Shown: positions 24,540 through 48,602, counted from the first letter of the stretch. The stretch is 64,000 bases of DNA from Anaerolineae bacterium (GCA_034435055.1 DAOTXS010000024.1:342-64341), one strand, 5' to 3'. The notes: generated by a model not told the origin, from the letters alone. A program made the numbers and translations.

Positions 24540-24548
24540 CACCCTCTT

Positions 24549-25613: not shown

Positions 25614-25618
25614 CCCGC

Positions 25619-26092: not shown

Positions 26093-26143
26093 TGTTCCCC
26101 CCAGTGGAAAAGTCGAACATCGGAAATTCCTCAAAATCTATTT

Positions 26144-26613
26144 GCCGCAGAATCACGCAGAAAATTTATCACTTGGATTTGGCAAGTCGCTTGAATTCGC
26201 ATTTCTGCTCACCAAAGTTCAACAATAACCCCACCTGAATTCCAGTTGCCTTCAAATAGTTCAACAATTGTGCTTCGTGTTTGGAATTGTATTCCTTTTC
26301 TGCTTTGAGTTCGACGATTACCTTGCCGTCGACGAACAAATCAGCAGTGTAGTGTCCAACCAGCGTGCCTTTGTAACGAACGGAAATATCAGGTTGTCGC
26401 TCGACGGCAATACCTCGAGATTTCAGTTCGACCAACAGCGCATTCTCATAAACTTTTTCCAGAAATCCATAACCTAATACTTTCCAAACTTCAAATGCCG
26501 CGCCGATGATTTCTTTGGTTAACTCTCCATACAAAAAATCATTCATGTATTTTCCTGCAGATTTTGCCCGGCGGGTTACTTTTCTTCTGCGTTTTTCTGC
26601 GTGAATCTGCGGC
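26144..26613. mobile_element. Putative GxxExxY mini-element bounded by 21-bp inverted repeats
   Basis: GCCGCAGAATCACGCAGAAAA (26144-26164) and TTTTCTGCGTGAATCTGCGGC (26593-26613), 1 mismatch. Confidence 0.65.
26169..26546 (-). CDS. GxxExxY protein (PD-(D/E)XK nuclease fold)
   Basis: GYGFLEKVY motif, ADLFVDGKVIVELKA, AQLLNYL, GLLLNFG. Confidence 0.94.
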   Translation of the reverse strand: MNDFLYGELTKEIIGAAFEVWKVLGYGFLEKVYENALLVELKSRGIAVERQPDISVRYKGTLVGHYTADLFVDGKVIVELKAEKEYNSKHEAQLLNYLKATGIQVGLLLNFGEQKCEFKRLAKSK

Positions 26614-26620
26614 TAATTGT

Positions 26621-26977
26621 CTAATCCCAGTCGAAACCGCCTTTGCGCCAGATGTAGACATAGCCCACCAAAAGAATCGCGATGAAAATTGCCATCTCGA
26701 TCAACCCGAACAGTCCCAGTTGATTGAACAAGACTGCCCAGGGGTAAAAGAAAATGATCTCGATGTCGAAGAGGATAAAGAGAACGGCGGTCAAATAGTA
26801 CTTGATGGAAATTCTGCGGCGCGCGGAACCAAACGGCGGCATGCCCGATTCGTAGGGCGATAACTTGGCGGAATTGGGTTTGCGAGGACCAGTGATGAAG
26901 GAGAAAACCAACGCGATTGCCGCAAACGCTACGGCAATGATGATCATCACGAGGATGGGTAAATAGTCTATCGGCAT
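26621..26977 (-). CDS. nuoA: NADH-quinone oxidoreductase subunit A
   Basis: PYESG, FILFDIE..FFYPWA, WRKGGFDW. Confidence 0.97.
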   Translation of the reverse strand: MPIDYLPILVMIIIAVAFAAIALVFSFITGPRKPNSAKLSPYESGMPPFGSARRRISIKYYLTAVLFILFDIEIIFFYPWAVLFNQLGLFGLIEMAIFIAILLVGYVYIWRKGGFDWD

Positions 26978-27016
26978 TGAAGACCTGATGAGAACGGGAT
27001 CGAAATAACTTTATGA

Positions 27017-27045
27017 ATCATATTACATTTCGCGCAACTTGTCAA
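27017..27045 (-). promoter_or_regulatory. sigma70-type promoter of nuoA
   Basis: TTGACA (27045-27040) - 17 nt - TATGAT (27022-27017). Confidence 0.75.
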
Positions 27046-27076
27046 AAAAAAGACGCGCAGTTCCTCACCGCGCGTC
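27044..27076 (-). terminator. Intrinsic terminator of copper operon
   Basis: GACGCGC/GCGCGTC stem plus 8 T on minus strand; T-run overlaps the nuoA -35. Confidence 0.75.
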
Positions 27077-27084
27077 GAGCAGTG

Positions 27085-27273
27085 CTAATGATCGTGTCCG
27101 TGATCGGGCATATGCATCATCGGTCCGTTTTTCAAAAACTTTTCCGGGTCTTTTTGAAACGCGACCTGACAGCCCTTGGCGCAGAAATAGTACGTGGTGC
27201 CTTGATAGTCCCACTTCCATTTGGCAGTACTTTCCTCCACCATCATCCCGCACACCGGGTCTTTGTGTTGCAT
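27085..27273 (-). CDS. YHS-domain protein
   Basis: KDPVCGM..YQGTTYYFCAKGC..FQKDPEKF, His-rich tail; AAGGAGG RBS. Confidence 0.92.
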   Translation of the reverse strand: MQHKDPVCGMMVEESTAKWKWDYQGTTYYFCAKGCQVAFQKDPEKFLKNGPMMHMPDHGHDH

Positions 27274-27295
27274 CTGCAATCCTCCTTTTGGATTT

Positions 27296-27877
27296 TTATT
27301 TGTTCGCATCGATTCCAATAAATAAACCGCCGATCAACCGATTCACTTGGCGCACGTGAAAGCCGGCGCGCTCCACCGCCCCTAACGTGTCGCGATTCAG
27401 ATGGCAATTGCCGGCAATTTGCTTCCACAGCGGCGTGAGCGCGTCTTGCATCCCGGCAATCAGGCGATTGCGCGTTCGCACGTGTTCGACCAATCGAAAC
27501 GTGCCGCCGGGTTTCAATACGCGATGCACTTCACTCAACGCGCGCGCCGGCTCGCCGATACTGCAAAACGTCAGCGTGCTGACCACCGCATCGAACGAAG
27601 CATCCACGAACGGCAACTCTTCCGCGCGTGCTTGCTGCAAAACGGTCGATGTGCCATTCCGTCGTGCCAACGCTCGCTGCAACGATTCGCCGTTCGGATC
27701 GATGGCGGCAATCGATTGGGCGGCGCGATAGTGTTGCAAGTTGAGTCCGGTGCCCACGCCGATTTCGAGTACGCGTCCGCGCGCGGTACTGACAGCCCAC
27801 CGCCGCCACTGCCGCACGCCAAACGAATCGAACGGCGCGATGATTGTATCGTACGAGGATGCAATGCGTTTATCCAC
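27296..27877 (-). CDS. Class I SAM-dependent methyltransferase
   Basis: VLEIGVGTG, AEELPF, FDAVVS, VLKPGG, LVEH. Confidence 0.92.
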   Translation of the reverse strand: MDKRIASSYDTIIAPFDSFGVRQWRRWAVSTARGRVLEIGVGTGLNLQHYRAAQSIAAIDPNGESLQRALARRNGTSTVLQQARAEELPFVDASFDAVVSTLTFCSIGEPARALSEVHRVLKPGGTFRLVEHVRTRNRLIAGMQDALTPLWKQIAGNCHLNRDTLGAVERAGFHVRQVNRLIGGLFIGIDANK

Positions 27878-28094
27878 TTTGGTTCATCCATCGCGAAACA
27901 ACCGTCCGCAACTTGACCGCGTCTGCCCAAATAATCGGTTGTCCATTCACCGACGCAACCGGCGTATAATGACACTGATCGAGGCAATCGACCAGCTCGA
28001 CTGTAATTTGCGCGCCGTACTGTTTTTTCAAACTCAGCGCAGCAGCGATCACCGGTTTGCTTCGTTCGCAATTGCGACAGACTTTGATGATCAT
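27870..28094 (-). CDS. Small thioredoxin-like (2Fe-2S ferredoxin/DUF1450-like) protein
   Basis: 74 aa, VCRNC..CLDQC..VNG; stop overlaps next ATG. Confidence 0.65.
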   Translation of the reverse strand: MIIKVCRNCERSKPVIAAALSLKKQYGAQITVELVDCLDQCHYTPVASVNGQPIIWADAVKLRTVVSRWMNQSG

Positions 28095-28123
28095 TTTTCC
28101 ATTTTGTCATTGCGCTTGAGAGG

Positions 28124-30631
28124 TTACAACACCGGCGCTTTGAATCCACGCAAGCGCAAAGAATTCGTTACAACAAATACCGACGAAAACGCCATCGCCG
28201 CCGCTGCGATAATTGGATTCAAGAGCAACGCAAAGAACGGATACAACACGCCCGCCGCAATCGGGATGCCGGCGACGTTGTAGAAAAACGCCCAAAACAA
28301 ATTGCCTTTGATCGTGCGAATCGTTTGCTTCGACAACGCAATCGCTGTGGCGACGCCGCGCAAATCGCCGGAGATGAGCGTGATTTCTGCCGCTTGCATC
28401 GCCACGTCGGTTCCTGTTCCAATCGCAATGCCGATGTTTGCTTGTGCGAGCGCGGGCGCATCGTTGATGCCATCGCCCACCATTGCGACGATCTCGCCTT
28501 GCGCTTGCAATTCTTTCACCTTGTCTGCTTTTTGATGCGGCAAAACTTCCGCAAAGAAATTATCGATGCCGACCTGTTGGGCAATCGCGGCGGCAGTGCG
28601 CGGATTGTCGCCGGTCAACATATAGACCTTGACCCCCAGTTTCTTCAACGCCTCGACCGCCGCTTTGGAATTGGGTTTCAATGTGTCGGCGACGGCGATC
28701 AACCCGGCGGGCTTGCCATCGATTGCCGCGAACATCGCCGTTTTGCCTTCGTCCGCCAATTCACTGGCTTGCGATTCCAAACCATCGAGCGCGATATTTT
28801 GATCGAGCATCAATTTGCTGTTGCCGATCAACACCTCGCGTCCGTCGATGCGTGCGCGGATGCCGTGCCCGGCAACCGCGCCAAATTCCGATGGCTCGGT
28901 CAAACTCAATCCGATTTCTTGCGCGTGTTTGACGATGGCTTGACCGAGCGGATGCTCGGAATTTTTTTCCGCGCTCGCAACCAATTGCAACAAACGTTCA
29001 ACGTTCAACGTTTCAGGTTTAAGGTTTGAACTTTGAACCTCAAACTTTGAACTTGTAACTACATCTGTCACGGCAGGTTTTCCTTGCGTCAGCGTCCCGG
29101 TTTTGTCGAGAATAATCGCCGTAACCTTGTGCGCGGTTTCCAACGCGCCGCCGCTCCGTATCAACACACCATTCTCCGCGCCTTTGCCAGTGCCAACCAT
29201 AATCGCGGTCGGCGTGGCGAGACCGAGCGCGCACGGACACGCGATGATCAACACGGCGACGAAATTGACGAACGCCATATTGAACGATGGTTGCGGTCCA
29301 AAAATCAGCCACACCAAAAATGTTGCCATTGCGATAGCGACGACAATCGGCACGAACACCGCCGAGATTTGATCGGCGAGGCGTTGAATCGGCGCTTTCG
29401 ATCCTTGTGCGTCTTCGACGAGTTTGATGATTTGCGCGAGCGCAGTTTCGCGTCCGACTTTCCGCGCCTCGAATTTGAACGCACCCATTTTGTTGATCGT
29501 CGCGCCAATAACGTTATCGCCGACATTTTTCTCGACGGGCAAACTTTCGCCGGTGATCATCGATTCGTCAATCGATGAATAGCCGGAAAGAATCACGCCA
29601 TCGACCGGGATTTTTTCGCCGGGGCGCACGCTAACAATGTCGCCCACGCGCACGTCGTTCACCGGAATTTCGATTTCCTGTCCGTTGCGTTCGATACGCG
29701 CGGTCTTTGCTTGCAACTGCATCAAATTCTTGATCGCTTCGGACGTTTGTCCTTTGGCGCGCGCTTCCAAGTATTTTCCAACTTTGATGAGCGTGATGAT
29801 GACCGCCGCGCTTTCAAAGTACACGTGCGAATCGATTTTGACACCGAACAACCCGGCGACTAGAACGATGACACTGAACCAATACGCCGCGTTCGTGCCA
29901 AGCGAAATGAGCAAATCCATATTCGGCGCGCCGGCGCGCAACGATTTCCACGCGCCGCGATGATACCCACGACCAACGTAGAATTGGACCGGCGTCGCGA
30001 GTGCAAACAACAACCATTTGAAACCGTCCCACCAAAAGAGCCACGGCATAAAATCGTGCATCTTGAGTGCGTGCACAATATCGTGCGTCATCGAGAGGAC
30101 AAAGAGCGGGGCGGTGAATGCAATGCCGATCATCAAGTCGCGCCACTCGCGTTGGCGTTCTTCCTCGCGCAATGCGCGTTCCCGATCGACGAGTTCTTCC
30201 TGTTTGTTGCCGAGTTCAAGTACTTCATACCCGGCATCTTCGACGGCGCGTTTCAGATCCGCAAGTGTTGCCGCGCCGGGAATCATTTCGACCGTTGCGC
30301 GTTCGGTCGCCAGATTAACCGCGACGTTTAGTACGCCGGGAACCTCTTTGAGTCCATTCTCAACGTGCATCACGCAACTGGCGCAGGTCATTCCGCCAAT
30401 TGGCAACGTGATTTTATCGACAACAACATCGTAACCCACATCGCGTACTGCCGTGACCATTTTATCAATAGTGGTTTGTTCTGGATCGAACTGCACTGTC
30501 GCGCGTTCGTTGGCGAGATTGACCACCGCGGTTTGCACACCCGCGACCTCTTTCAATCCGCCTTCGACGTGCATCACGCACGCGGCGCAGGTCATGCCGC
30601 TGATTGGCAATGTTATTTGTTGGGTAGACAT
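28124..30631 (-). CDS. copA: Cu(I)-exporting P1B-type ATPase
   Basis: Two GMTCxxC HMA domains, TGES, CPC, DKTGT, SEHP, GDGIND, YN and MAFSS; csoR upstream. Confidence 0.96.
28992..29054. repeat. Nine-unit inverted heptamer array in frame within copA
   Basis: AAACGTT CAACGTT CAACGTT TCAGGTT TAAGGTT TGAACTT TGAACCT CAAACTT TGAACTT = 63 nt. Confidence 0.85.
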
Positions 30632-30663
30632 CTCTATCCTGTCAGTCAACCAGTGCCTAGTTG

Positions 30664-30945
30664 CTAGATTTTTGAAGCGGTTTCAAACACATCGAGCAAT
30701 TCTTTGATGACGCGCTCGCGTTCTTTGGGTTTGTTGCCGCGAATCGCCGTTGTGACGCAGTGGTTCATGTGGCGTTCGAGCAAAAGCGCGTTCAATTTGT
30801 CCAACGCTTTTTCAATCGCCTGAGTTTGTTTGATGATGTCAATGCAATAGGCGTCTTCGTCGATCATACGCGCCACTGCGCCCATATGTCCCTGAATGCT
30901 CAAAGCACGGTTTTTGAGTTGCTGTTTGTGATCGTCCATTGCCAT
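30664..30945 (-). CDS. csoR: CsoR/RcnR-family metal-sensing repressor
   Basis: [22 protein letters not shown]; precedes copA. Confidence 0.9.
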
Positions 30946-30951
30946 ACCTTT

Positions 30952-30981
30952 TACCCATCCCACCCCCCACCGGAGGGGGTA
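30952..30981. promoter_or_regulatory. Putative CsoR operator
   Basis: Minus strand TACCCCCTCCGGTGGGGGGT: C-tract/G-tract pseudo-palindrome just downstream of the -10. Confidence 0.65.
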
Positions 30982-30991
30982 ATCTAAAGCC

Positions 30992-31020
30992 ATTGTATCG
31001 CGCGCGCGGGAGTTTGTCAA
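30992..31020 (-). promoter_or_regulatory. sigma70-type promoter of csoR-copA
   Basis: TTGACA (31020-31015) - 17 nt - TACAAT (30997-30992). Confidence 0.85.
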
Positions 31021-31055
31021 ATCAAAAACCCGCCAGCGCACCGGCGGATTTCGGG

Positions 31056-32171
31056 TTAGTCGATGTGCGCCTGCGCGTTGGCGTCTGCGGCGCGCTGGCG
31101 TTGCCAGCGTTCAAAAAAGAACGTGACCATCGCCCACAAGACACCGGCAACCGGAATCCCAAAGAACGCGCCCCAAAACCCGGCAATGCGAACGCTGATC
31201 AGAATGGCGGCAAAAACCAGCAATGGGTGCAGACCTAGCGAATCGCTCAGCACGCGTGGCATGAGAACGTTGACGATTACAAATTGGTACACAAATAAAA
31301 AGATAAACAGCCACAAGGCGACATCGGGTGTCTGGAAGAGCGCGACCAACACTGGTGGAATCAGCGCCAGAAAAGGTCCAACCAGTGGAATGAGCATAAA
31401 CAAGCCGGCAAACAGCGCGGCGATCAGGACAAAATTCAATGCCAACACCGTCATGGCAATTCCTGTGCCAACGCCAACGAGCAATGCTTGCATCAATTGG
31501 CTGCGCAAGAAACCACCGAATGTACGGTCGACATTTTGGGAAAAGACATCGACTTCATCGTGAAATGCTTTTGGCACGCGCGACAAAATCTTATCCCACA
31601 TGCGTGGCCCATCCATCGTCATAATGAATCCGATGATGACGACGAAAAATAAATTTGCCAAGACGCCGAGCACGCCCGTGAAAATACCCAGCGCATTTTG
31701 AATGATCGTGCTGGCATAGTTCTGCAAACTGTTCAGTCCGCTGTCGATGGCTTGCTGAACGTTGACTCGAATGCCCACGCGCGCCAATTCCACTTGGGCG
31801 GTTTTACTCAGTTGGGGAACTTGATCCATATATTCTGGCAGATGACTTGCTAACAGCGTCAATTGTGTGATTGCCGTTGGCGCAAACAAGCCGACGGCAA
31901 TAATGATCACCAACACTAGCGCCAGATAAACGAATATCACCGCCTGCTCGCGTGAAAAACGCGCTGGCGCACCGGCGGCTGATGGACGGCTCAAGGATGC
32001 AACCGCCGGATTCAAGATGAAGGATACAAGCCAGCCCAGAACAAACAACAACAACAAATCGGCATAGTTGCTGAGAATCTGCCACACCATTTGCGCCAGC
32101 GCGAGCGTGGCAAGAATGATTAGCAGAATTAAAAGTGTATTGATGAGTTTGTCGCGCAATGTTTTGTCCAT
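31056..32171 (-). CDS. AI-2E family transporter
   Basis: SFILNPAV, GGFLRSQL, IPLVGP, LMPRVLSDSLGLHPL, GAFFGIP. Confidence 0.92.
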   Translation of the reverse strand: MDKTLRDKLINTLLILLIILATLALAQMVWQILSNYADLLLLFVLGWLVSFILNPAVASLSRPSAAGAPARFSREQAVIFVYLALVLVIIIAVGLFAPTAITQLTLLASHLPEYMDQVPQLSKTAQVELARVGIRVNVQQAIDSGLNSLQNYASTIIQNALGIFTGVLGVLANLFFVVIIGFIMTMDGPRMWDKILSRVPKAFHDEVDVFSQNVDRTFGGFLRSQLMQALLVGVGTGIAMTVLALNFVLIAALFAGLFMLIPLVGPFLALIPPVLVALFQTPDVALWLFIFLFVYQFVIVNVLMPRVLSDSLGLHPLLVFAAILISVRIAGFWGAFFGIPVAGVLWAMVTFFFERWQRQRAADANAQAHID

Positions 32172-32182
32172 CGCTTCAATCC

Positions 32183-33859
32183 TCACGCCGATTTAGCGCG
32201 CCGCCAACTCCAAACCAATAATCCACTCGCGCCGATAAACAAAATACCAAAGAGACTTGCCAGCAGCCACGGAAAAGCCGGATGACTATCGGCGTAAATT
32301 TCCAGACCGTCTAACGCAACTTCGCCATTCTGCCCCACCACAATTTCGACCGAGTGCGTCGTGCGTGGCAGGTCGCGGACAATCGACACGCGAACTTGCC
32401 ACTCGTCGTTTGGCGATGCCAGATCGATGTAACTATTGTTGTTCGCGTCAAGTGGCAGACCCGGCACGCGCTGACCATCAACTGTAATCCACGCGCGCCC
32501 AAGTGTGGGCGACCGTTGCACGATCAAGTCCAAACCATCGCCCCAGAATTTGAAATTGACGCGCGCGCCCGGTTGGCGCGTCATCAGCAAACTTCCCCCG
32601 CTGGCGCGTGGATTGAGTAACGGTTGCCAGTTGCCGGTCATTTGAATGGCAATGTTTGTTTCTTGATGCAAGCCCGGCTGGGCAACTTGCGGAAACGTCG
32701 CAACTTCTTTCAGGCGTTGATAAACCAGCCGTGGCGTAAAATCGACGTCGACCATCCGGAAGTAATAATCGGCGCGGTCAGGAGTGATGTCGCCCACTTG
32801 CCGGAAATACCACAGGTTGAACACACCAACCCAGTTCCAATTCGCGCGCGCGTACTCAATGCCGCGCAACGTGTAATCGGCTTGCTGTTGTTCCGGCACG
32901 CGCCCCCACAATAATTTCTCGGCGGGAAAATCCGGCGGCGCGGCGTTCCAACCGTACTCGTTGATCCAAATGGCTTTGTTCGCGTCGCCGTATTTTTCCA
33001 TGATCTGCCGCGCCAGCACGACGCGTTGGAAATTCAATTGCTTGGGGTCGGGCGGATCCGTGGGCGTGGATTTCAAACCAAACGCGTTCGCGGAAAGAAT
33101 GTCGAAATAGTCTTTGGCGCCGGCTTTGTACAACGCTTCAAGATAATCGAGGTCGTTCATATGTCGCCAGAAATCGGAATTGGGTTCCCAGCCTTCGCCA
33201 AGCGTGATGGCGAGCGGCGCGGATAATACGCGAATGTTCGGGTCAGCGCCTTTGGCGCGTCGATATGCAATTTCCAAAAGCGCGGCGTACCCGGCAGGAT
33301 CAACGGGGCGATTGCCCCATTCTGGAAAAATGTTTGGCTCGTTCCAAATTTGGATGTACCGCACGCGCCCTTTGTACCGCCGCACAAACGCATCGATAAA
33401 ATTTCCGTAATCGTTCAGATCGTCCGGCGGCGCTTGTGGAATCGATTTGTCTTTGTGTGTCCACGCGGGCGGTCGATCCAAGCGCGCGATGATTTGCAAA
33501 CCGTACTTTTCAAACGTCGCAATGATTTGATCCGATTTTTCCCAATCGTATTGGTTCTGGCGTTTTTCGATTTCTTCCCACGAGAATTGTTGTTTTGCCC
33601 ACACAATGCCGGCTTCGCGTGCCATCCGCACCGTGCGATCGCGTTTCCAATCTTCCACTTCGCGGTCGAGAAAAAAATTGGCGCCGTACGGATTTACGTC
33701 CGTGTCCGGAATCAAGCGCGGCGGCAGCGGTGATGGTGCGGGACTATCGGCTTCTACCCACGTGGCAACGCTCCACGACAAACCGACGAGCGCGGCGAGC
33801 GCGACGAGCGTGAGGAAAAATCGAACGAGACGGGATTTCAAGCACAACTCCTTGACCAA
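32183..33859 (-). CDS. Membrane-anchored GH-A clan glycoside hydrolase (GH5/GH39-like)
   Basis: WAKQQFSWEEIE, YIQIWNEPN (acid/base), WINEYGW (nucleophile); N- and C-terminal hydrophobic segments. Confidence 0.8.
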   Translation of the reverse strand: MVKELCLKSRLVRFFLTLVALAALVGLSWSVATWVEADSPAPSPLPPRLIPDTDVNPYGANFFLDREVEDWKRDRTVRMAREAGIVWAKQQFSWEEIEKRQNQYDWEKSDQIIATFEKYGLQIIARLDRPPAWTHKDKSIPQAPPDDLNDYGNFIDAFVRRYKGRVRYIQIWNEPNIFPEWGNRPVDPAGYAALLEIAYRRAKGADPNIRVLSAPLAITLGEGWEPNSDFWRHMNDLDYLEALYKAGAKDYFDILSANAFGLKSTPTDPPDPKQLNFQRVVLARQIMEKYGDANKAIWINEYGWNAAPPDFPAEKLLWGRVPEQQQADYTLRGIEYARANWNWVGVFNLWYFRQVGDITPDRADYYFRMVDVDFTPRLVYQRLKEVATFPQVAQPGLHQETNIAIQMTGNWQPLLNPRASGGSLLMTRQPGARVNFKFWGDGLDLIVQRSPTLGRAWITVDGQRVPGLPLDANNNSYIDLASPNDEWQVRVSIVRDLPRTTHSVEIVVGQNGEVALDGLEIYADSHPAFPWLLASLFGILFIGASGLLVWSWRRAKSA

Positions 33860-33971
33860 AAGTCGGCGGGGACGTTGGGGGCGAATTTGTTCTAATCATA
33901 TCACAACGTAGCGCGAGCGTCAAAAAATAAAAAACCTTGCGAAGGTTTTCTGCGCAAGGTTTTGGGGATTT

Positions 33972-34892: not shown

Positions 34893-34922
34893 GGTAACTA
34901 CTCGCTGTTGAGAATCGACGAG

Positions 34923-36749: not shown

Positions 36750-36785
36750 AATATATCCTCTTGGATGATGAATCGCGTGAAAGGA

Positions 36786-37355: not shown

Positions 37356-37577
37356 ATTGTTCCAACTCCTTACAAAGATGTCGAGAAAATCAAAATGCTC
37401 TCGCAAGAGCGGTGCGATTATAGCATAATCAAAAACAAATATCAAGTGCATTTTCAGAAATCCGCGCGCCGACGATGAACTCACAATGAATTCGATCCTT
37501 TGACGGACGAAACACGGTCGATAAAAAATAGCGCTGAGATTTTTCAGCGCTATTTTTTATCGAGGGGAGTTGTGCGA

Positions 37578-38477: not shown

Positions 38478-38575
38478 TGTATCCTCCGTCGAGAAATCGG
38501 TTTCATTCGTTAGACGCTTTCTGCCGTAAAAAGTTCCAAGACCTGACCGGCTTTTTCAATCGGTCAGATCTTCAT

Positions 38576-39310: not shown

Positions 39311-39383
39311 AGGTGATTTGGCGGTATTCTACCACAGGAAAGCAAAATCGCAAACAAGGACAATAGTACTTGCCGGGTCTGCA

Positions 39384-39412
39384 TTGTCCAACCTCGTCAA
39401 TCGGAGTATAAT
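39384..39412 (+). promoter_or_regulatory. Putative promoter of tsaE operon
   Basis: TTGTCC - 17 nt - TATAAT. Confidence 0.6.
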
Positions 39413-39433
39413 GCGGTTGAAAAAGAAACGGCG

Positions 39434-40589: not shown

Positions 40590-40597
40590 TTTTGTTA

Positions 40598-40648
40598 GCC
40601 GCAGAAACACGCGGAAATCCGCAGAAATTTTCTGTGGGATTCAGTGGC
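40598..40648. repeat. Empty GCCGCAG hairpin repeat
   Basis: GCCGCAGAAACACGCGGAAATCCGCAGAAA..TTCTGTGGGATTCAGTGGC; resembles GxxExxY flanks. Confidence 0.7.
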
Positions 40649-40658
40649 AAAGATTACA

Positions 40659-41279
40659 ATGCTTGATTATTCCAACTTGCCGTATCGCGTCGAACCGATG
40701 GTGCCGCAGGATGTTGCGACGATTATGGAGATCGAAAATGTTTCGTTCTCCGCGCCGTGGTCGGCGCGCGCGTACGATTACGAGTTGCGTTACAATGAAA
40801 TGGCGCATTATTTCGTCGCGCGGTTGCAACAGCAACCAGCGGTGGCAATTCCGCCCAAGCCGGTTTTTTCGTGGCGGCGTTGGTTTGAGCGCGGCACTCG
40901 TTTGGCGGATGCGGATGCGGCGAACGTCGTCGGTTATGCCGGCTTTTGGTTGATGGTCGATGAAGCGCACATCAGCACGATTGCCACCCATCCGCAATGG
41001 CGGCGGCGCGGCATCGGCGAATTGATGTTGATCGCGATGATCGATGCGGCGGCGGCAATCGGCGCGCGGTGGATGACGTTGGAGGTTCGTGTGTCTAACA
41101 CCGGCGCGCAAGCGTTGTATCGCAAATTTGGGTTCGATGTAACTGGGATGCGGCGGCATTACTACACCGATAATAATGAAGACGCGCTGATTATGACGAC
41201 GCCGTTGATCACGACGATCGAATACCAAATGAAACTCGATGGTTTGAGAGGCGCGTTGTTCAGCCGCTTGTCGAGATAA
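40659..41279 (+). CDS. rimI: Ribosomal protein S18-alanine N-acetyltransferase
   Basis: EAHISTIA..RRRGIG, TLEVRVSN..AQALY..FGF, YYTDNNEDALIM. Confidence 0.93.
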   Translation: MLDYSNLPYRVEPMVPQDVATIMEIENVSFSAPWSARAYDYELRYNEMAHYFVARLQQQPAVAIPPKPVFSWRRWFERGTRLADADAANVVGYAGFWLMVDEAHISTIATHPQWRRRGIGELMLIAMIDAAAAIGARWMTLEVRVSNTGAQALYRKFGFDVTGMRRHYYTDNNEDALIMTTPLITTIEYQMKLDGLRGALFSRLSR

Positions 41280-41396
41280 GGTGGCTGTGGTAAAATCCAG
41301 CCGCAGGTTTCGCAAATGCTCCGCACGTAAAAAATTATACCGGTGTAATTGACGGAATCTGCGGATTGCTTTGGGATAAGGTGTCGAGGAGAAAAA

Positions 41397-41612
41397 ATGG
41401 TCAGTCCAGAGTTGCTCGAAATCTTACGTTGTCCCGCGTGCGTGCGCAACGGACCAAACGCCGGGATGCTTGATTTCATCCGCGAGACGTGGCTGGTCTG
41501 CCGCGATTGCGGCCGCAAGTATCCGGTCAAGAACGACATTCCGATTATGCTCATCGAGGAAGGCGATAAATACCGCGCCACGCCGATCGAGCAGTTGGGC
41601 GCGCCGGCATAA
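41397..41612 (+). CDS. Trm112-family small protein
   Basis: LLEILRCPAC..LVCRDCGRKYPVKNDIPIML. Confidence 0.92.
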   Translation: MVSPELLEILRCPACVRNGPNAGMLDFIRETWLVCRDCGRKYPVKNDIPIMLIEEGDKYRATPIEQLGAPA

Positions 41613-41703
41613 TCCGGCGAACGCTGAAAAACGTAGCATAAACAGGTAAAGTCAACGGGGACGACGTTACTTTGACCTGTTTATTTTTTCTGAGGGAGAA
41701 AGT

Positions 41704-43065
41704 ATGAAAAAGCCAATCCTCGTACTTGGCGCAATTTTGTTTGTGTTGAGTGTGTTCGCCGCGCCGGCGTTCGCGGCAGACCCGATTGCAATTACGTCGA
41801 ACAAGTTCGTCAACAACTTTCGACAAAATCTGCAATTCAAATTGGACGCGACGAGTACGGCCGGCAAAATCAATCAAATCGCGCTCTTTATTCAAATCGA
41901 TGGGGTGTCGTCGAGCGCGCGGCAATTGCCGGAATTCACCGCCGACAAACAGGTTGCGGCGACGTACGAATGGAATCTCACGCGCAATTATTTGCCGCCC
42001 GGCGTGACCGGTCAATTTTGGTGGATCATCGAAGATGATGCCGGGAGCAAATTGACCACCGACAAGCAATCGTTCCGGGTCGAAGACACCTCGAAACAGT
42101 GGAGGAAATTATCGAACGAGAAGCTCGCCATCTTTTGGTACAACGGCGGCGATAGTTTCGGCAAAGCGTTGTTTGAGCGCGGTGTCGAGGCGATGAAATT
42201 TTTGGAGCAGGACACCGGCGTCGTCATCGATCGGCAAATTCAAACGTACATCTACGGCAATCGCGCCGATTTTCGCAACGCGTTGTCGGTGGGCGCGCAA
42301 GAGTGGACGGGTGGACAGGCGTTCCCGGATTACAGCGTCGTTTTGATCAACGTCGAGCCGACGGCGTTGGAGTGGGGCAAAGGCGCGACGGTGCACGAGT
42401 TGACGCATCAAGTCATTCATCAAAAGATCAAGGGTCCGCTCGGCGATTTGTCGATGCCACATTGGATGGACGAAGGGCTGGCGATGTACTATGAAACGTA
42501 TCCCGACCAACTCGATTCGCAATTCAACACGCCGTTGCGCCGCGCCATTCAAAACGATACGGTCGTTGCGTTGCGAACGTTGAGCGGCGCCTTCCCCGCC
42601 GATTCCAACGCGGCGAATCTGGCGTACGCGCAAAGTTACGCCGTCGTCGATTTCATCTATCGCAAGTACGGCAAAGACAAGATGGCGACGATGCTCCAAG
42701 AATTCAAAAAGGGCGGAAACTATGACGACATTCTCAAAAAAGTGATTGGTGTCGATACCGATGGGTTGGATAATGCGTGGCGGCAGGAAGTAGGATTGAA
42801 GCCACGTGCGGTGGCAACCCGTTCGTTGCCGCAATCAAGCGCGATTCCGACCATCGGTCTCTCCACCGATTACTCGACGCCGATGCCGGGCGCGCCAGCA
42901 ACCGCGACGCCGCCGCGCGTCTCGCAGAATGTTACCCCTGCCGCGCCATCGTCGAGCGCGTCCAGCAGTTCCGGGACGACGATTCAAATCTGTAGTGCGT
43001 CGTTCTTGGTGTTTGCGGTGGGATTTTTGGGAGTCGTGCTGAGCCGGCGGAAGAAAGTTTTGTAG
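41704..43065 (+). CDS. Secreted peptidase MA-family (HEXXH) protein
   Basis: Signal peptide, VHELTH, WMDEGLA, AYAQS; S/T/P-rich linker and C-terminal hydrophobic anchor with basic tail. Confidence 0.88.
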   Translation: MKKPILVLGAILFVLSVFAAPAFAADPIAITSNKFVNNFRQNLQFKLDATSTAGKINQIALFIQIDGVSSSARQLPEFTADKQVAATYEWNLTRNYLPPGVTGQFWWIIEDDAGSKLTTDKQSFRVEDTSKQWRKLSNEKLAIFWYNGGDSFGKALFERGVEAMKFLEQDTGVVIDRQIQTYIYGNRADFRNALSVGAQEWTGGQAFPDYSVVLINVEPTALEWGKGATVHELTHQVIHQKIKGPLGDLSMPHWMDEGLAMYYETYPDQLDSQFNTPLRRAIQNDTVVALRTLSGAFPADSNAANLAYAQSYAVVDFIYRKYGKDKMATMLQEFKKGGNYDDILKKVIGVDTDGLDNAWRQEVGLKPRAVATRSLPQSSAIPTIGLSTDYSTPMPGAPATATPPRVSQNVTPAAPSSSASSSSGTTIQICSASFLVFAVGFLGVVLSRRKKVL

Positions 43066-43179
43066 TACCTCTCTCCGACCCTCTCCTAAAAGGAGAGAGC
43101 GCAAATGAAACGGGCAATGCTCATAAAGCATTGCCCGTTTTGTTGTACTCTAAAAATCAACTGCGAAGACAAAAAGGAA

Positions 43180-43266
43180 TTGTCATTCCGAGTGACCCGC
43201 GCAGCGGGGAGCGAAGAATCTCGTTCAAGTCATAACGAAACCCTTCGCTTTGCTCAGGGTGACAAA
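43180..43266. repeat. REP-like palindromic element (GTCATTCCGAG variant)
   Basis: TTGTCATTCCGAG..GCGAAGAATCTC..CTTCGCTTTGCTCAGGGTGACAA. Confidence 0.75.
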
Positions 43267-44754
43267 GGAATCGCGCCGCGCACAAAATTTGCCAACGTCT
43301 TTTTGAGTTTTGCGAGCGAGGGCAGGTGGATGTACATCATATGCCCGGCTTCGTAAAACGACAGCGACAAATTCTTTTCGAGCGACGGATCGATGCCGAG
43401 ATGGTTGAACGTGTACTGCGTGGCAAAGTACGGCGTCGCAAAATCGTAATAGCCGTTTGCCACGTGGACTTAGAAACGGATTGATCGTCATCGCCTCGCG
43501 CAACGTTTCCGCGACGTTGACGTACTGATTTTCGTGTTGTGCGTAACTCCACGGTTGCACGCGCGGCGTCAGAATTTCGTACGGCAGATCGGTTTCAAAA
43601 CGCAACTCGCCGCGCACGTAATCGTTGAACGTTGCGGTGTACGGTCCGATGATGTTGGTCAAACTGGGATCGTACTCGTGCGCCTCGCCCGCCGCATCCC
43701 GGTCGATGCCCTTGAAGCGACTGTCGAGCCGTCCAACGGTGCGACGCTCGTCGCGCAACAGTTCTTTGCAAAAGCGATGAATCTCGATGCGCAGATTCGT
43801 GCGGTCGATGTAATCGATGGATAGACCGGTGTAGCGGGATAATTTTGCGACGATGGCTTGACGTTCGTCGGCGGTGAGCGTTGCGCCTTTTGCCAACGCG
43901 AGCGTGTACTCGCCGAGCGCAAATGCTTCAACCTCACGCAGTGTCGCTTGCAAATCGTTCTGCAATTCCGGCGCGAGTCGTTGGTGATACCACGCGGTCG
44001 AAGTGTACGTCGGCAAGAATAAAATGTATGGCAAATCGTTGCCGGTGTTAAAGCGCGCGGTCGCAAAATTCAGAATCGACGAGACGAGCATAATGCCGTT
44101 CAAGTACATCCCGTGTCGATTTTGTAAATAGCCGGCCAAGCCCGCCGCGCGCGTCGTGCCGTAACTTTCGCCGATCAAAAATTTGGGCGAGGTCCAGCGT
44201 TGATAGCGCGTGGCGTACAGTCGAATGAAATCGCCGACCGACTCGATGTCCTTTTTGAAACCGTGAAACTCTTTCGCTTTTTCGCCGACGACCGGTCGTG
44301 AAAACCCGGTGCTGACCGGATCGATGAACACGAGATCGGTTACATCGAGCAGTGAGAATTCGTTGTCGGTGAGTTGGTACGGCGGCGGCGGCAAATCGCC
44401 GAGGTCGGTCATCACGACGCGGCGCGGACCCAGCACGCCGAGATGCAACCACACCGATGACGACCCAGGACCGCCGTTGAACGAAAATGTCAGCGGGCGT
44501 TTCGTTTTGTCGGTTACGTCGTCGCGCGTGTAGGCGATGAAGAAAATGGATGCTCGTGCCTTTTCGCCTTCCGACTCGCCGGCTTGGTCGCCTTTCTTTT
44601 CTGATTCCTCTTTCAGCACGATGGTGCCGCAGGTGACGGTGTATTTGATTTCCTGTCCACCCAGCGTGATGCTGTGTTTGGTCTCGACGATTTGGTCTTT
44701 GGGTTCTGGTTTTTGGTCTTCGGATTTCTTTTCGTGGGTGTCTTTATCGGACAT
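43254..44754 (-). pseudogene. S10 serine carboxypeptidase, frameshifted near 43470
   Basis: FNGGPGSSS, DPVSTGFS, GESYG in main frame; VANGYYDFATP..YEAGHMMY (catalytic Asp/His region) in second frame. Confidence 0.85.
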
Positions 44755-44779
44755 TGAAAACTCCGGTGAATTGCTATTG

Positions 44780-44866
44780 TCGCCATCGGCTCAAGCCGAC
44801 GGCGATTGGGCGTGAAACCCGCCAAGCGGGTTTGAAGATTGATAGCCGTCGAATTTATTCGATGGC
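44780..44866. repeat. Triple-hairpin REP-like element
   Basis: TCGCCATCGGC/GCCGACGGCGA, AAACCCGC/GCGGGTTT, GCCGTCGAAT/ATTCGATGGC. Confidence 0.65.
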
Positions 44867-44958
44867 GCGGTCGGTGCGCGTGTGTTTGCTGCCGTGCGTT
44901 GTCGCAATCCACTCAGACAGTCAATCTGGTACTGAAGTAATCACCAGGGATGATTGAA

Positions 44959-45399
44959 TTAGCCGTCCTTTTTCGATTCTTTCTTTTGGTCATCATTGAA
45001 ATAAACATCCAAATCTTTTAACTCAGACCAATGAGAAGCACTTGAGCCATCTTTGATTGGGCCGTACACTGGATATCCGAACTCGTCAGGCTGTCCAATC
45101 ACGTAATGATAAACATTGAGAGGTGGCTCACCTGCTCTCGGTTTATTTTCTATTCTAACCCAATCAATCCCCCCCACCAAGCTGCTCGGCGGTGGCTGAA
45201 AAGTGTGTTGCGTAGGAGCAATGCCGCTGGCAAATACAGCAAATGTATTCACACTTCCAAAATGGTCTTTGATTAGATTCCACCGTTCTTGTGGAAGGTC
45301 ATTCACCTTCCAAAACCCAGGGCCGACAAGTTCATTAAGATTCTCTCTGGTGATATAGAAATTCGGTCTTGGCGGAATTCCCGAAGGTGTTTCTGTCAT
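44959..45399 (-). CDS. AT-rich hypothetical protein
   Basis: ATG 45399 with GGGAGA RBS; about 146 aa; no motif recognised. Confidence 0.6.
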   Translation of the reverse strand: MTETPSGIPPRPNFYITRENLNELVGPGFWKVNDLPQERWNLIKDHFGSVNTFAVFASGIAPTQHTFQPPPSSLVGGIDWVRIENKPRAGEPPLNVYHYVIGQPDEFGYPVYGPIKDGSSASHWSELKDLDVYFNDDQKKESKKDG

Positions 45400-45460
45400 T
45401 GTATTCTCCCAAATAGCAACCACTTGCGCGTGTTTGCTAAATCCGTTCTGGGTCACCAGG

Positions 45461-46501
45461 TTATTTTGTGTCTAGCCAAACTCGCATCTCGTTTGGGAAT
45501 ATCGCTTGCCCATACGCGAGCAGTGGATGAGAGTCTCCCGCTGTAACTGTGAATGCTATCCAACCTTCAAGAGAACCATTGGCATATATTCTTCCCAAGA
45601 ACTGGGGGTCAGGAGGAACAACCGTCTGTCCCTTGAATGACTGAGCTTCTTTTCCATCGGATGTCACGACGACAAAGTACGCATCGCTCAGCATAACTGA
45701 TGATTCTTTACCCGCCTTGACAAGACGAGCGCGAACTTTGAACAACATGTATTCAGCACCAGACGGAGGAGGTTTGTTGTATTGATTCGCTGATTTTATT
45801 CGGTTCCAAGCGTCCTGCCCACGAAAATATTGAAGCAAGGTGAATTCAATTTGCTGATTGTCATGACCTGTCCAAATCACGCTTTTTCCGAGTGGGACTG
45901 GATTAGAACGTGTATAGCCAGGAACATTGGGCGGTGGTGTTGGTGTCGGAGCAAACAGAGCAAGCGTTGGTAGAGGACGAAGCGTCGGTATAGGAGCAAG
46001 TGTTGGCGTCGGAAGGAGCGTTGGAGTTGGTATATTTACAAACGTAGGATTATTCAGAATTGCTAACTCTGCTTTGGCTCTCTGAAAATTGTTAGCAGCA
46101 GAGGTAAGCTTTATACTGACTATCCAATCACTCTGTTGCCCCATGAAAGAAATATATGCTTCAATCGTTTCATCCATTCCCGCGACAACGTATTGGAAAT
46201 ACGCGTCAGCACAACTAGGATGTTGGAGATTTTTGTAATCGCGCCTAATCTGTTGCATCTCCCCGATGACAGGAGATAACGCAATTCTTGGTGTAGCATC
46301 AGCGCGCCTTGTGGCGTCATAGAACTTGTCAAGAGTTTCGCTTGTCGTTTTTAGGAAATCCTTTGCGTTGCATTTGGGTAATCCTATTACTGCAGGAGTA
46401 TTCGTGCTATAGAGAATTACACCACCGACGCAAAAGACTCCGATGGCTGCGAGTGTCAAAATAGCTAGAATTGTCCATTGCGTTCGAGTGAATCCCACCA
46501 T
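45461..46501 (-). CDS. Membrane-anchored protein with C-terminal Ig-like (DUF4352-like) domain
   Basis: AGGGAGGA RBS, N-terminal TM, helical domain, PTPTL linker, GAEYMLFKVR..GSLEGWIAF. Confidence 0.75.
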   Translation of the reverse strand: MVGFTRTQWTILAILTLAAIGVFCVGGVILYSTNTPAVIGLPKCNAKDFLKTTSETLDKFYDATRRADATPRIALSPVIGEMQQIRRDYKNLQHPSCADAYFQYVVAGMDETIEAYISFMGQQSDWIVSIKLTSAANNFQRAKAELAILNNPTFVNIPTPTLLPTPTLAPIPTLRPLPTLALFAPTPTPPPNVPGYTRSNPVPLGKSVIWTGHDNQQIEFTLLQYFRGQDAWNRIKSANQYNKPPPSGAEYMLFKVRARLVKAGKESSVMLSDAYFVVVTSDGKEAQSFKGQTVVPPDPQFLGRIYANGSLEGWIAFTVTAGDSHPLLAYGQAIFPNEMRVWLDTK

Positions 46502-46956
46502 ATCCTCCCTATCAAAGCTCGCTTGGGGCGCGAATGCACCTTCGTTAAAAGGGCATGTCAGCAAACTTATATTTCACGAACTACGAGTGCGGGAATCACG
46601 GAATTTCACGCTCAAGCTGTTTGGATTCCCGCATCTTTGGGTGCGGGAAACCAAACGGGGTTTTCCGCACCTGTAATGATTCTGTGTCTTTTATCCCCCC
46701 TCGCTTGACAAAACTCGCCCATCCAACCATCCCATCACCTAACCACCCAACTATCGCACTATTGCACTATCGCACCATCGCACTATCAAACTATTCAACT
46801 CTCCTCACCACCGCTTTCTCCAAATCCTTCACCACAATCAAAATTTCGTGCCGGGCACGGGTGCGCCTAAAATATAAAGCAGATTCCGCATCACGTCAAC
46901 ACAGAACCTGCTTTGGGGAGTTGAAAAGTGTGGCTGTCCACTTTGAATTAGGCAAC

Positions 46957-47259
46957 TCATGAGGAAGAACGATTTTTTAGCCAGCGTTCAAACGAGGTCA
47001 TGCTTTCGGTAGATTTTTTCCCCAATAACATTCCCTCCACGCCAATATCCTCGTCCAAATCGGGCCAATAAATTCCAAAACCCGCGCCGCTAACCTGAAA
47101 ATTCTCGCGTTCAGCGGGCGTGCCATGTGCGAGCCGTGGATACCAGCCAATCGGCACGGAAATCGTTCGACCATCTTCCAGGTCAACGGTCAATGTATCG
47201 TCGTCGATGGAAACCGCGATGATTTTAGCCAATCCGATTATTGCTTGAGCAGAAATCAT
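46957..47259 (-). CDS. DUF2442 protein (putative antitoxin partner)
   Basis: LTVDLEDGRTISVP..YPRL..AT..ER..GIYWPDLDEDI. Confidence 0.88.
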   Translation of the reverse strand: MISAQAIIGLAKIIAVSIDDDTLTVDLEDGRTISVPIGWYPRLAHGTPAERENFQVSGAGFGIYWPDLDEDIGVEGMLLGKKSTESMTSFERWLKNRSSS

Positions 47260-47479
47260 CCCACACCTTTCTCAATTTTGGCAGATTGTCTCTCGTGATT
47301 CGTTCAATGTCGCGCAATTCTTTCCTGTTGTAACCAAAATTTTCCGCCAGTGCGACGTCAGGATCAAGCCAGAACTTGGCACTTTTGTTTTCTCGATCAA
47401 CGTGCATATGTCGTGGTTCCCCACAATCATACGAGTAGAAATAAAATCGATACGGACCGATGAAAATTGCAGTTGGCAT
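47225..47479 (-). CDS. DUF4160 protein (putative toxin partner)
   Basis: MPT..IGPYRFYFYS..EPRHMHV..AKFWL. Confidence 0.9.
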   Translation of the reverse strand: MPTAIFIGPYRFYFYSYDCGEPRHMHVDRENKSAKFWLDPDVALAENFGYNRKELRDIERITRDNLPKLRKVWDDFCSSNNRIG

Positions 47480-47620
47480 TATTGTTTCGACTCTTGCTGA
47501 TTTCTTGATGAGCGGTTCATCGCATTTCTATATCCGAATATAGAACATATTCTACTTCGCGTCAAACCTCAAATGCTCAACAACCCACCCACCTAACCAC
47601 CCAACTATCGCACCATTGCA

Positions 47621-48538
47621 CTATCCAACTCGTTTGACCGTTGCTCTCTCCAAATCCTTTACCACAATCGTGTTCGGGAAAACCGCGCGCGCTTCCGCTT
47701 CAATCACCGCGCCAGAGTAGCGCCGCGAAATGTGCGTGAGATAAAGTTGCTTGACCTTCGCATCGCGCGCGCATGCGGCAGATTCCGCGGCGGTGATGTG
47801 CCCAAACTTGCGCGCTGTCTCCACGTCGTCCATTGTGTACGTCGCTTCCATCACGAGTGCATCCGCGTCGCGCGCCGGTTCCAGCACTTCGTCCGTGCGC
47901 GCAATATCGCCGACGTAAACCAATTTTGTGCCCGGCACCGGCTCGCCCAACACATCTGCCGGCTTGACGATGCGCCCGTCCGCGAGCGTGAGTGTTTCGC
48001 CCGCGACGAGGCGTTTGCGTTCGGGTCCCGCCGGCACGCCCAGTTTTTCCGCTTGCTCGACTAAAAACGGGCGCTTGGTTTTTTCCTGAAACACAAAACC
48101 GAAACAACCGCTTCCGCGATGAACGACCGGAAACGCGTAGACATCGAGATTCTTTTCCGACAGCACCAAACCATGTTTCAGTTCGATGAATTCGATCTCC
48201 ATCTCGACTTCTTTGCCGCGCAAGACGACCTTCATCAAATCGCGCACGCGGTCGATTGCCCAGCGCCCGCCGTAAATCTCGATTTTGTTGATCGCTTCCC
48301 AACGTCCAAACGTCGACACGATGCCGCCCAGTCCCAGGATGTGATCGAGGTGTCCGTGCGTCAAGAAAATTCGGCGCAGGTCTTTGAACCCCAGACCGCT
48401 CGTCAAGATTTGGCGTTGCGTGCCTTCCGCGCAATCGAGCAGGAAACGCTGACCTTCGTGAATCAGCATCGTCGAGGTCATATTGCGTTCGATACTTGGC
48501 GCGGACGCCGAGGTGCCTAAGAAACAAAGTTCAAACAT
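47621..48538 (-). CDS. rnz: Ribonuclease Z
   Basis: FLGTSASAPS, DCAEGTQRQ, THGHLDH, exosite GVPAGP, EATY, GHITA, THISRRY. Confidence 0.95.
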   Translation of the reverse strand: MFELCFLGTSASAPSIERNMTSTMLIHEGQRFLLDCAEGTQRQILTSGLGFKDLRRIFLTHGHLDHILGLGGIVSTFGRWEAINKIEIYGGRWAIDRVRDLMKVVLRGKEVEMEIEFIELKHGLVLSEKNLDVYAFPVVHRGSGCFGFVFQEKTKRPFLVEQAEKLGVPAGPERKRLVAGETLTLADGRIVKPADVLGEPVPGTKLVYVGDIARTDEVLEPARDADALVMEATYTMDDVETARKFGHITAAESAACARDAKVKQLYLTHISRRYSGAVIEAEARAVFPNTIVVKDLERATVKRVG

Positions 48539-48551
48539 GAAAATCCATTTT

Positions 48552-48602
48552 GCCGCAGAACCGCGCAGAAAAATTCTGTGTAATTCTGCGTGGTTTTGCG
48601 GC
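48552..48602. repeat. Empty GCCGCAG hairpin repeat
   Basis: GCCGCAGAACCGCGCAGAA..TTCTGCGTGGTTTTGCGGC. Confidence 0.75.

Follow-up and report, generated by a model that had tools for sequence, protein, structure and literature searches.

A GxxExxY nuclease gene between inverted repeat arrays in an Anaerolineae genome: a candidate compact mobile element with gene-less derivatives

A 64,000-nt stretch of DNA from an Anaerolineae bacterium (GCA_034435055.1, DAOTXS010000024.1:342-64341; hereafter, the window) contains, between nuoA and nuoE, a small gene of the GxxExxY family that is bracketed by inverted repeats, and similar arms stand without a gene at two other places in the window. The locus raises the question of whether gene and repeats form one unit, whether that unit moves, and whether the encoded protein, a predicted nuclease, acts on the repeats. 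An initial annotation had proposed an autonomous/non-autonomous pair of mini mobile elements driven by the nuclease.

We put at roughly 0.55 the probability that the locus belongs to a widespread family of compact elements in which a GxxExxY nuclease gene lies between inverted arrays of 9-11-nt repeats, gene-less derivatives exist, and the nuclease drives movement. The parts of this reading differ in strength. Gene and arms very probably constitute a single evolutionary unit that has gene-less derivatives and has moved between sites and phyla, and that is a stable resident in the lineage of the window. Whether the nuclease itself binds and cuts the arrays, be it for transposition, RAYT-like maintenance or homing, is a question on which we find the balance even. 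A tentative extension, which we would sooner doubt than accept, is that GxxExxY is the sole catalytic protein of a new class of mobile element, recognizing phased decamer arrays at the ends of its own element and of gene-less copies, and moving or copying them. We found no prior description of this kind of element in the literature, and it looks like undescribed compact selfish DNA.

Layout of the filled element and its gene-less copies

The 21-nt arm GCCGCAGAATCACGCAGAAAA occurs exactly at 26144-26164 (plus strand) and with 1 mismatch at 26593-26613 (minus strand), and further matches lie at 40598-40618 (plus, 3 mismatches) and 48552-48572 (plus, 2 mismatches). These four matches in the window compare with 0.02 expected from 100 shuffles, and they bear out the initial observation that the gene is bracketed by inverted repeats. 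A repeat search lengthens the gene-flanking pair to 25 nt (26140-26164 and 26593-26617, 92% complementary, 428 nt apart). Each arm is built of tandem 10-nt units (CGCAGAAnnn) with an outer GCC cap, with three units 5' of the gene and two 3' (coordinates of all features are collected in Table 1). The 5' arm starts 3-5 nt after the nuoA stop codon. No promoter-like or terminator-like site was found inside the filled element (26140-26617), so the gene is probably transcribed by read-through from the nuoA promoter. No second GxxExxY copy was found in the window by tblastn and hidden Markov model searches.

Both gene-less copies carry the same arms, as had been claimed, but they do not have the same orientation, because the 40598 copy is inverted on the plus strand relative to the other two. 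Relative to co-directional neighbor genes, however, all three copies in the window share the polarity 5'-TAGCC...GGCAAA-3'. The description of both as hairpins of about 50 bp fits the 48552 copy, which is a strong palindrome (DNA z = -6.5), but not the 40598 copy, which is decayed (DNA z = -1.6, RNA z = -2.3). A G at arm position 4, which is rare and confined to the lineage of the window, is common to the filled copy and both gene-less copies, and the UBA4826 genome has the A variant at this position in both its filled and its gene-less copy.

The proximity of the ends to stop codons also stood up to scrutiny, with the nuoA, tsaB and cyclase stops within 5 nt of an end or overlapping it. The tsaB stop lies 5 nt ahead of TTAGCC in the 40598 copy, and the cyclase gene ends in a TAG (48602-48604) that shares the arm's terminal base, such that the element's terminal TA|G supplies the stop codon. 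More generally, in 21 of 86 termini the upstream host gene uses the TAG of the terminal TAGCC as its stop codon, versus 15% for any TAG. Such stops occur in the window at 48602-48604, in loci L029, L037, L086, L143, L147, L155, L169 and L179, and in others, and several of them end open reading frames (ORFs) of 300-950 codons.

Other weak unit pairs occur in the window at 33218, 56790, 59624, 62320 and 6369; the pair inspected, at 56790, is without an inverted partner and was treated as chance. An inverted repeat at 14897-14916 and 15397-15416 was rejected as a second filled element, since both of its arms belong to coding sequence, of a GAF-domain gene and of nuoN, and the pairing is therefore attributed to chance. 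Separately, the window contains a palindrome of GTTCAAG units at 23344-23392 (GTTCCAAGTTCAAGGTTCAAGGT / ACCTTGAACCTGAAACTTTGAAC) and a perfect 20-nt inverted repeat at 37518-37563 (TCGATAAAAAATAGCGCTGA / TCAGCGCTATTTTTTATCGA).

The 125-aa product of the gene matches TIGR04256 (GxxExxY; E = 1e-43, 148 bits, cut-off 35) and PF13366 (PDDEXK_3; E = 5e-43, 146 bits, cut-off 22), the latter being its sole Pfam match. The motif that gives the family its name is G27-F-L-E30-K-V-Y33, near the N-terminus. Among 86 aligned sequences, D69 and E79 do not vary, and conservation is at least 90% for K81, E19 and the GxxExxY stretch (27-33). An AlphaFold model based on these 86 sequences has a predicted local distance difference test (pLDDT) value of 93.4; it replaced an earlier model from 13 sequences (pLDDT 60) that was unusable. 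The best structural matches of this model are the Cas4 protein SSO0001 (4ic1; E = 2e-4, template-modeling score 0.56), lambda exonuclease, LHK-Exo, MGME1 and the Holliday-junction resolvase Hjc (2eo0). The modeled core, alpha-beta-beta-beta-alpha-beta with D...(D/E)xK, is that of the PD-(D/E)XK superfamily, and the predicted catalytic residues (D69, E79 and K81) are intact; the fold assigned at the outset is thereby upheld.

Other searches with the protein gave little. A sequence search of solved structures found no relative, the PADLOC defense models gave marginal Cas4 matches only (E = 0.006-0.02), the PHROGs phage-protein models gave no match, and family-model searches gave no match to a known transposase class (DDE, serine, tyrosine or HUH). 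At 50% identity (E <= 1e-3), the PF13366/TIGR04256 family falls into 19,079 clusters. Of the best 150, about 30 are proteins of 250-390 aa with two tandem GxxExxY domains (P0361-P0365, P0368 and others), which hints that the working unit is dimeric. The sole family-level survey retrieved gives the function of GxxExxY/PF13366 as unknown (PMC3424549). Our literature search (GxxExxY, PDDEXK_3, PF13366, and combinations of MITE (miniature inverted-repeat transposable element) and nuclease) retrieved a few passing mentions and no account of the flanks or of a function for the family.

Recurrence among relatives, across phyla and at orthologous sites

A pattern and tblastn scan of metagenome contigs gave 80 loci with relatives 52-75% identical, of which 74-75 had usable flanks. 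A flanking inverted repeat scoring at least 14 is present in 41 of 75 loci, whereas this score is reached in 0 of 100 shuffles and at 1 of 73 control genes of the same loci. In a looser test, 71 of 74 loci have an array of two or more core units no farther than 200 nt from the gene, where the background is 0.16 arrays per kb, and the arrays flank the gene in opposed arrangement in 38 of the 74. The generality of the flanks, on which the initial annotation had staked its proposal, is supported by both tests.

The arms of these relatives always consist of phased 9-11-nt units with the core CRCRGAW, and they fall into the subtypes GCCACAGAAnCACACGGAA, GCCACGGATGAAACACGGATGAAA, GGGACGCAGATAAACGCAGATAA, GGACGCGGATnnnCGCGGAT and GCCACGAAnnCACGAA. 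In the family, the arrays have an outer GCC cap, often preceded by TA. Loci with the same arm subtype have more similar proteins (mean identity 0.580 versus 0.534), a difference that 0 of 2000 label permutations reached. Type-A arms separated by 280-520 nt have a GxxExxY gene between them at all loci but L137 and L159. According to crude ORF calling, the gene is co-oriented with its upstream neighbor in 50 of 59 cases and with its downstream neighbor in 47 of 59, with median gaps of 74 and 54 nt, respectively.

Locus L159 has an unusual arrangement. Family arms (717-1704) surround a different ORF of 152 aa (748-1206) with a predicted membrane anchor, directly upstream of the GxxExxY gene, and the latter has a minus-oriented arm on each side. 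This locus is a composite or rearranged element.

The arrangement recurs in other organisms, cultured ones included. Treponema saccharophilum carries the gene between ACACGGATTCG and CGAATCCGTGT, and the gene of Gemmatirosa kalamazoonensis is followed, after 24 nt, by a complete hairpin of the CGCGGAT type. In a Planctomycetota metagenome-assembled genome (MAG), a relative located between zinc-ribbon and HIT genes is tightly flanked by TAGCCACAGAAAAACACGGAAGCACACAGAAAA and TTCCGTGAAATTCTGTGTGATTCTGTGGCTAA, and a decayed paralogue on the Planctomycetota contig carries a matched arm variant of its own (GCCACAAAGGCACTAAGG...). A relative in a Blastocatellia MAG follows rpoD, with both arms downstream as a large-loop hairpin. 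The Planctomycetota and Blastocatellia relatives encode proteins 70-73% identical, at unrelated sites.

Gene-less hairpins are also widespread. A scan for the arm pattern using one genome per species returned at least 120 blocks, mostly chance matches. Among the matches listed, at least about 26 blocks (8 kb) have true hairpins, and these belong to at least 10 phyla, although contamination of MAGs could make individual phylum assignments less certain; against this, several of the contigs with hairpins measure 190-380 kb. Hairpin-bearing blocks among these matches come from Chloroflexota (several MAGs, of which one has at least 6 blocks), Burkholderiales, Steroidobacteraceae, Abditibacteriaceae, WOR-3, KSB1, Elusimicrobia, Desulfobulbia, Poribacteria, Blastocatellia and Bacteroidota. 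Gene-less hairpins are multi-copy in several genomes, and in some MAGs the same nested hairpin variant is present on two independent contigs, which likewise counts against contamination. The polarity of gene-less copies relative to transcription is mixed in genomes other than that of the window. Copies of the Gemmatirosa hairpin number at least 7 on one of its two megaplasmids and at least 11 on the other (at least 18 together); these megaplasmids also carry GxxExxY genes, and the hairpin was not found in other plasmid records. Only 8 of 72,556 plasmid records carry a GxxExxY relative, which argues that plasmids are not the main vehicle.

Loops of these hairpins contain other repeats, at L029 6088-6243 and L092 1895-2049, at L026 79-176 and L032 7226-7323, and at L120 5984-6115. 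Two loci of one genome share the same loop insert, and the L120 loop holds a GTCATGCTGAGCGGAGCAAAGCATCTC-type palindrome. The hairpin loop seems to be a hot spot for insertion.

In the lineage of the window, the gene has been stable. Metagenomic and MAG contigs with GxxExxY proteins 99%, 81% and 77% identical have the gene at the same nuoA|nuoE position, with arms retained. The arms of these orthologues exhibit matched G-to-A changes on both sides (GCCGCAGAA/TTCTGCGGC versus GCCACAGAA/TTCTGTGGC), and the 77% relative exhibits a parallel change in both arms (GCCACAGAA...CACACGGAA / TTCCGTGTG...TTCTGTGGC). Among orthologues at nuoA|nuoE, the proportion of synonymous differences is saturated (pS 0.75-0.87), and that of nonsynonymous differences is 0.13-0.15 (pN), which indicates that the protein is under purifying selection; the non-coding arms are conserved across orthologues whose neutral sites are not. 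From these comparisons, the copy in the window is no recent insertion, but one inherited vertically at nuoA|nuoE over approximately 19% protein divergence.

Filled, empty and absent alleles, which the initial annotation had suggested comparing, are all present at nuoA|nuoE. In a tree of NuoA+NuoE+NuoH, the four filled loci (the window, L003, L007 and L008) form one clade, and the next branch is a locus with a 37-nt spacer containing a possible arm remnant (TTCTCCGTGTG). L224, which branches below the filled clade, has at nuoA|nuoE a hairpin of this family that is empty and partly decayed (CCACAGAGAACACAGAG...CCTCTGTGG), and L227 has no trace of an element there. Either order of events would fit: a hairpin that later gained the gene, or a filled element that later lost it. 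At tsaB|rimI, the hairpin is present in strains at 97% TsaB identity and absent from a relative at 88% identity, whose spacer is only TAAttccaATG; a 71% relative has a different palindrome in the spacer. Between the window and L221, a 64-nt insertion or deletion at tsaB|rimI falls cleanly within the 5-nt spacer.

Table 1. Features of the filled element, the gene-less copies and associated genes (positions in the window)
Feature	Position	Strand	Description
5' arm (gene orientation)	26581..26617	-	TAGCC-GCAGATTCA-CGCAGAAAAA-CGCAGAAGAA; three 10-nt units, core CGCAGAA
Leader, 5' arm to ATG	26547..26580	-	34 nt; weak ribosome-binding site AGGAAA; not conserved in orthologues
GxxExxY protein gene	26169..26546	-	125 aa, predicted minimal PD-(D/E)XK nuclease; ATG...TGA; co-oriented with nuoA and nuoE
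3' arm (gene orientation)	26140..26164	-	TTTTCTGCGTGATTCTGCGGCAAAT; two units; begins 4 nt past the gene stop
Sigma-70-like promoter	27017..27045	-	TTGACA-17-TATGAT, 11/12 consensus match; upstream of nuoA
Gene-less copy, tsaB|rimI spacer	40595..40652	+	three units left, two decayed units right
Gene-less copy, adenylate-cyclase-type gene|RNase Z-like gene	48549..48605	-	near-perfect palindrome
RAYT-like Y1 transposase gene	18060..18707	-	between nuoL and nuoM; 44% identical to L225 Y1_Tnp ORF

Nature of the arms and competing explanations

Across 43 gene-oriented arm pairs, sense-strand mismatches comprise 35 G.T and 37 A.C. Because an RNA stem in the transcript would favor G.U pairs, these nearly equal counts mean that there is no wobble bias. 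In an alignment of 34 type-A elements anchored on the GCC cap, position 10 varies freely (T 20, C 19, A 17, G 12) and is complementary between arms in 0.21 of elements, versus 0.23 expected. Core purine positions 4, 14 and 16 agree between arms at frequencies of 0.97, 0.91 and 0.74, versus 0.81, 0.77 and 0.46 expected, respectively (0 of 2000 shuffles). The uncomplementary spacer, the co-variation of core purines, the lack of wobble bias and the 10-11-nt phasing together argue for protein-binding arrays on duplex DNA. The arms therefore look like inverted arrays of a putative protein-binding motif, not like a stem kept for pairing, and the term "hairpin," as initially used, overstates their structure.

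Our reading starts from six observations, namely the architecture, its generality among relatives, the co-variation of arms and protein, the allele polymorphism, the purifying selection on the protein, and its intact catalytic residues. In the mechanism that we envisage, the protein, probably as a dimer or higher oligomer, would bind duplex DNA at the repeated cores of both ends, and the nuclease would cut at or near the element termini. Cutting would allow the unit to be moved or copied, and gene-less copies could be mobilized or maintained in trans. Elements would settle just past stop codons within operons, in sense orientation, and be expressed by read-through. The copy at nuoA|nuoE has become a long-term, vertically inherited resident in this Anaerolineae lineage. 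As regards the autonomous/non-autonomous pair initially proposed, the unit does recur at unrelated sites and gene-less copies are multi-copy, but the copy in the window did not arrive recently, and the role of the nuclease is something that we infer from sequence.

Several points weigh against movement driven by the nuclease. The GxxExxY gene is absent from all of the approximately 26 hairpin-bearing 8-kb blocks among the matches listed, and in the lineage of the window it has long resided at one site. A target-site duplication is undefined, as the sole clean occupied/empty pair (the window versus L221) fits ATT or TT ambiguously; TA often adjoins the GCC cap, without consistency on both sides. 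No excision footprint is definable at the compared sites. In Gemmatirosa and Blastocatellia, the gene lies beside a complete hairpin, not within it, and on the Fusobacteria plasmid pZRK30-1 (L233, 1325-1940) it lies between direct repeats, AATC(A/G)GTGAAAAT...CAGATTTAATCCGTGTACCTAT. Also, a single-domain protein of 125 aa would need to accomplish both recognition and cutting, and we know of no transposase of the single-domain PD-(D/E)XK type.

The live rival, which we regard as unlikely yet worth serious attention, is a homing-type parasite. The hairpins would then be spread or kept by other means, and GxxExxY, as a free-standing gene like that of a homing endonuclease, would cut gene-less hairpins and be copied into their centers by repair from a filled copy. 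This explanation accommodates the gene's place in the loop between opposed arms in 38-41 of approximately 75 relatives, the empty nuoA|nuoE allele of L224 that branches below the filled clade, and the other inserts nested in hairpin loops; moreover, PD-(D/E)XK homing endonucleases exist, for example I-Ssp6803I. However, it leaves unexplained how hairpins arrive at new sites, the filled copy is apparently single in the available sequence, and the two gene-less copies in the window show no sign that conversion is in progress. The co-variation of arms and protein fits homing and nuclease-driven movement alike.

It is improbable that the arms are instead operator-like or architectural binding arrays that do not move, bound by GxxExxY or a host factor, with presence and absence explained by ordinary deletion and lateral transfer. 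The conserved unit cores, helical 10-11-nt phasing and uncomplementary spacer would be expected of such arrays, and the long stability of the locus, its purifying selection and the co-orientation of the gene with the host operon are compatible with them. The arrays, however, are scattered through genomes in multiple copies, at least 10 phyla have near-identical arms at sites unrelated to one another, a clean 64-nt indel falls in a 5-nt spacer, and repeats are nested in loops. These are hallmarks of mobile repeats and argue against fixed operators.

Still less credible is an RNA-level element, in which the arms would form a stem in the transcript (for RNase III processing, or as an mRNA stabilizer like repetitive extragenic palindromic (REP) sequences, cf. 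23S rRNA intervening sequences) and the gene would merely occupy the loop. All three copies in the window lie inside transcription units with one polarity just past stop codons, RNAfold closes a 521-nt region with the arms, and the gene is usually co-oriented with its neighbors. The mismatch counts and the uncomplementary spacer position nevertheless oppose pairing in RNA, folding of the 48552 copy is more favorable on the non-transcribed strand (-36 versus -28.7 kcal/mol), and the 40598 copy barely folds. There is no match to an Rfam family, and no T-run follows the stems. With wobble asymmetry, strand preference of folding and Rfam all negative, we rejected this explanation.

Mobilization of the hairpins by an unrelated enzyme, such as the RAYT-like Y1 transposase listed in Table 1, with GxxExxY as a passenger, is very improbable: this gene does lie in the same nuo operon and a related one is polymorphic (L225/L226 versus L224), but neither is flanked by CRCRGAA arms and both contain or match another palindrome family (GGGGCGACC...GGTCGCCCC), and in many lineages the arrays are tied to GxxExxY (71 of 74 loci), with arm type following GxxExxY similarity.

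If the GxxExxY nuclease does drive the element, a family of approximately 19,000 clusters (50% identity) would acquire a function, and a new type of enzyme would join the transposases and homing enzymes. If it acts on the arms, the result would be a RAYT/REPIN-like partnership on a different fold, and a second, independent case of a small gene that maintains a repeat population. Such action would also explain conserved intergenic palindromes in Chloroflexota, Planctomycetota, Acidobacteriota, Gemmatimonadota and Abditibacteriota, and likewise those in Elusimicrobiota, WOR-3, KSB1, Poribacteria and Pseudomonadota. Members of the clade are nearly always embedded in arrays of a conserved 7-nt core, and gene-less arrays behave like mobile repeats. 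Repeats that lie within operons and sometimes supply a host stop codon matter for annotation and for breaks in metagenome assemblies.

The surroundings of the element contain features of separate interest. The nuo operon (approximately 16600-27000, minus strand) has an unusual order, nuoA-nuoE-nuoH..., that is also found in L003 and L008. Interspersed among its genes are non-nuo genes for DinB/DUF1706, V4R and peptidyl-prolyl isomerase proteins, and in L008 a ParE toxin pair. The RAYT-like gene at 18060-18707 has no CGCAGAA arms, and its coding region contains GGGGCGACCCTTGTGGTCGCCC. A second palindrome family is located just past the nuoH stop, at 24549-24600 (GTAGGGGCGACGCTGCGTGGTCGCCC | GGGCGACCACGCAGGGTCGCCTCTAC), and its core recurs within each of the two RAYT-like genes and within the tsaB|rimI spacer of L222/L223; the genome of the window may thus harbor a classical RAYT/REP pair as well. 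In L225/L226 (3446-4120), a RAYT-like gene lies between nuoE and nuoH, where L224 has a short palindromic spacer instead; the NuoA proteins are identical.

Comparison with known systems

In protein structure, the element is closest to the Cas4/RecB/lambda-exonuclease group and Hjc, which include the best structural matches and share the D...ExK motif. The GxxExxY protein differs from them in being a bare core of approximately 120 aa with no extra domains, no CRISPR or recombination context, and marginal sequence similarity.

The 23S rRNA intervening sequence with an S23p ORF has been called selfish (PMC4990558). It resembles the GxxExxY element in that an ORF of approximately 120 aa (PF05635) is enclosed by inverted repeats, but the GxxExxY site is a spacer in an mRNA operon, the protein has another fold, and the RNA-stem tests were negative. 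A PF05635 (23S_rRNA_IVP) gene was also observed in L134 (15587-15955), between sucD and nadC and within inverted arms of tandem units (GTTCATAGAG..., TTTTTAGAG...). It represents a parallel layout, a small gene between arms made of units, with a different protein.

Homing endonuclease genes, including those of the I-Ssp6803I type, share with the GxxExxY element a small nuclease gene, filled and empty alleles, a patchy distribution, and close relatives in different phyla. However, the GxxExxY target would be a dispersed, multi-copy repeat, inverted arrays stand at both ends of the gene, and there is no intron or intein context.

Insertion sequences and their MITEs (for example, IS630-derived MITEs and Correia elements) likewise have terminal inverted repeats in coding and short non-coding forms, intergenic insertion, and co-transcription with neighbors. 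The GxxExxY element differs in that it is without a known transposase, its coding part is only approximately 375 nt, and its termini consist of repeated sub-sites. Membership in this group fails on the class of transposase.

RAYT/REPIN systems also consist of one small gene flanked by inverted short repeats, with gene-less palindromes in intergenic spacers, mostly at the 3' ends of genes. RAYT genes are vertically inherited under purifying selection, and the GxxExxY gene is similarly kept vertically at one site under purifying selection, with a repeat variant specific to the genome that carries it. The GxxExxY element differs in its enzyme, which is of the PD-(D/E)XK type (PF13366) and not an HUH/Y1 transposase (PF01797). 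Two or three phased units make up each of its arms, in place of a single stem, and selection for pairing is not evident, whereas the hairpins on which RAYTs act are single-stranded. Also, its arm sequence is common to several phyla. Although the Y1 enzyme and the hairpin constraint are lacking, RAYT/REPIN is, by analogy, the closest counterpart to the GxxExxY element in its logic.

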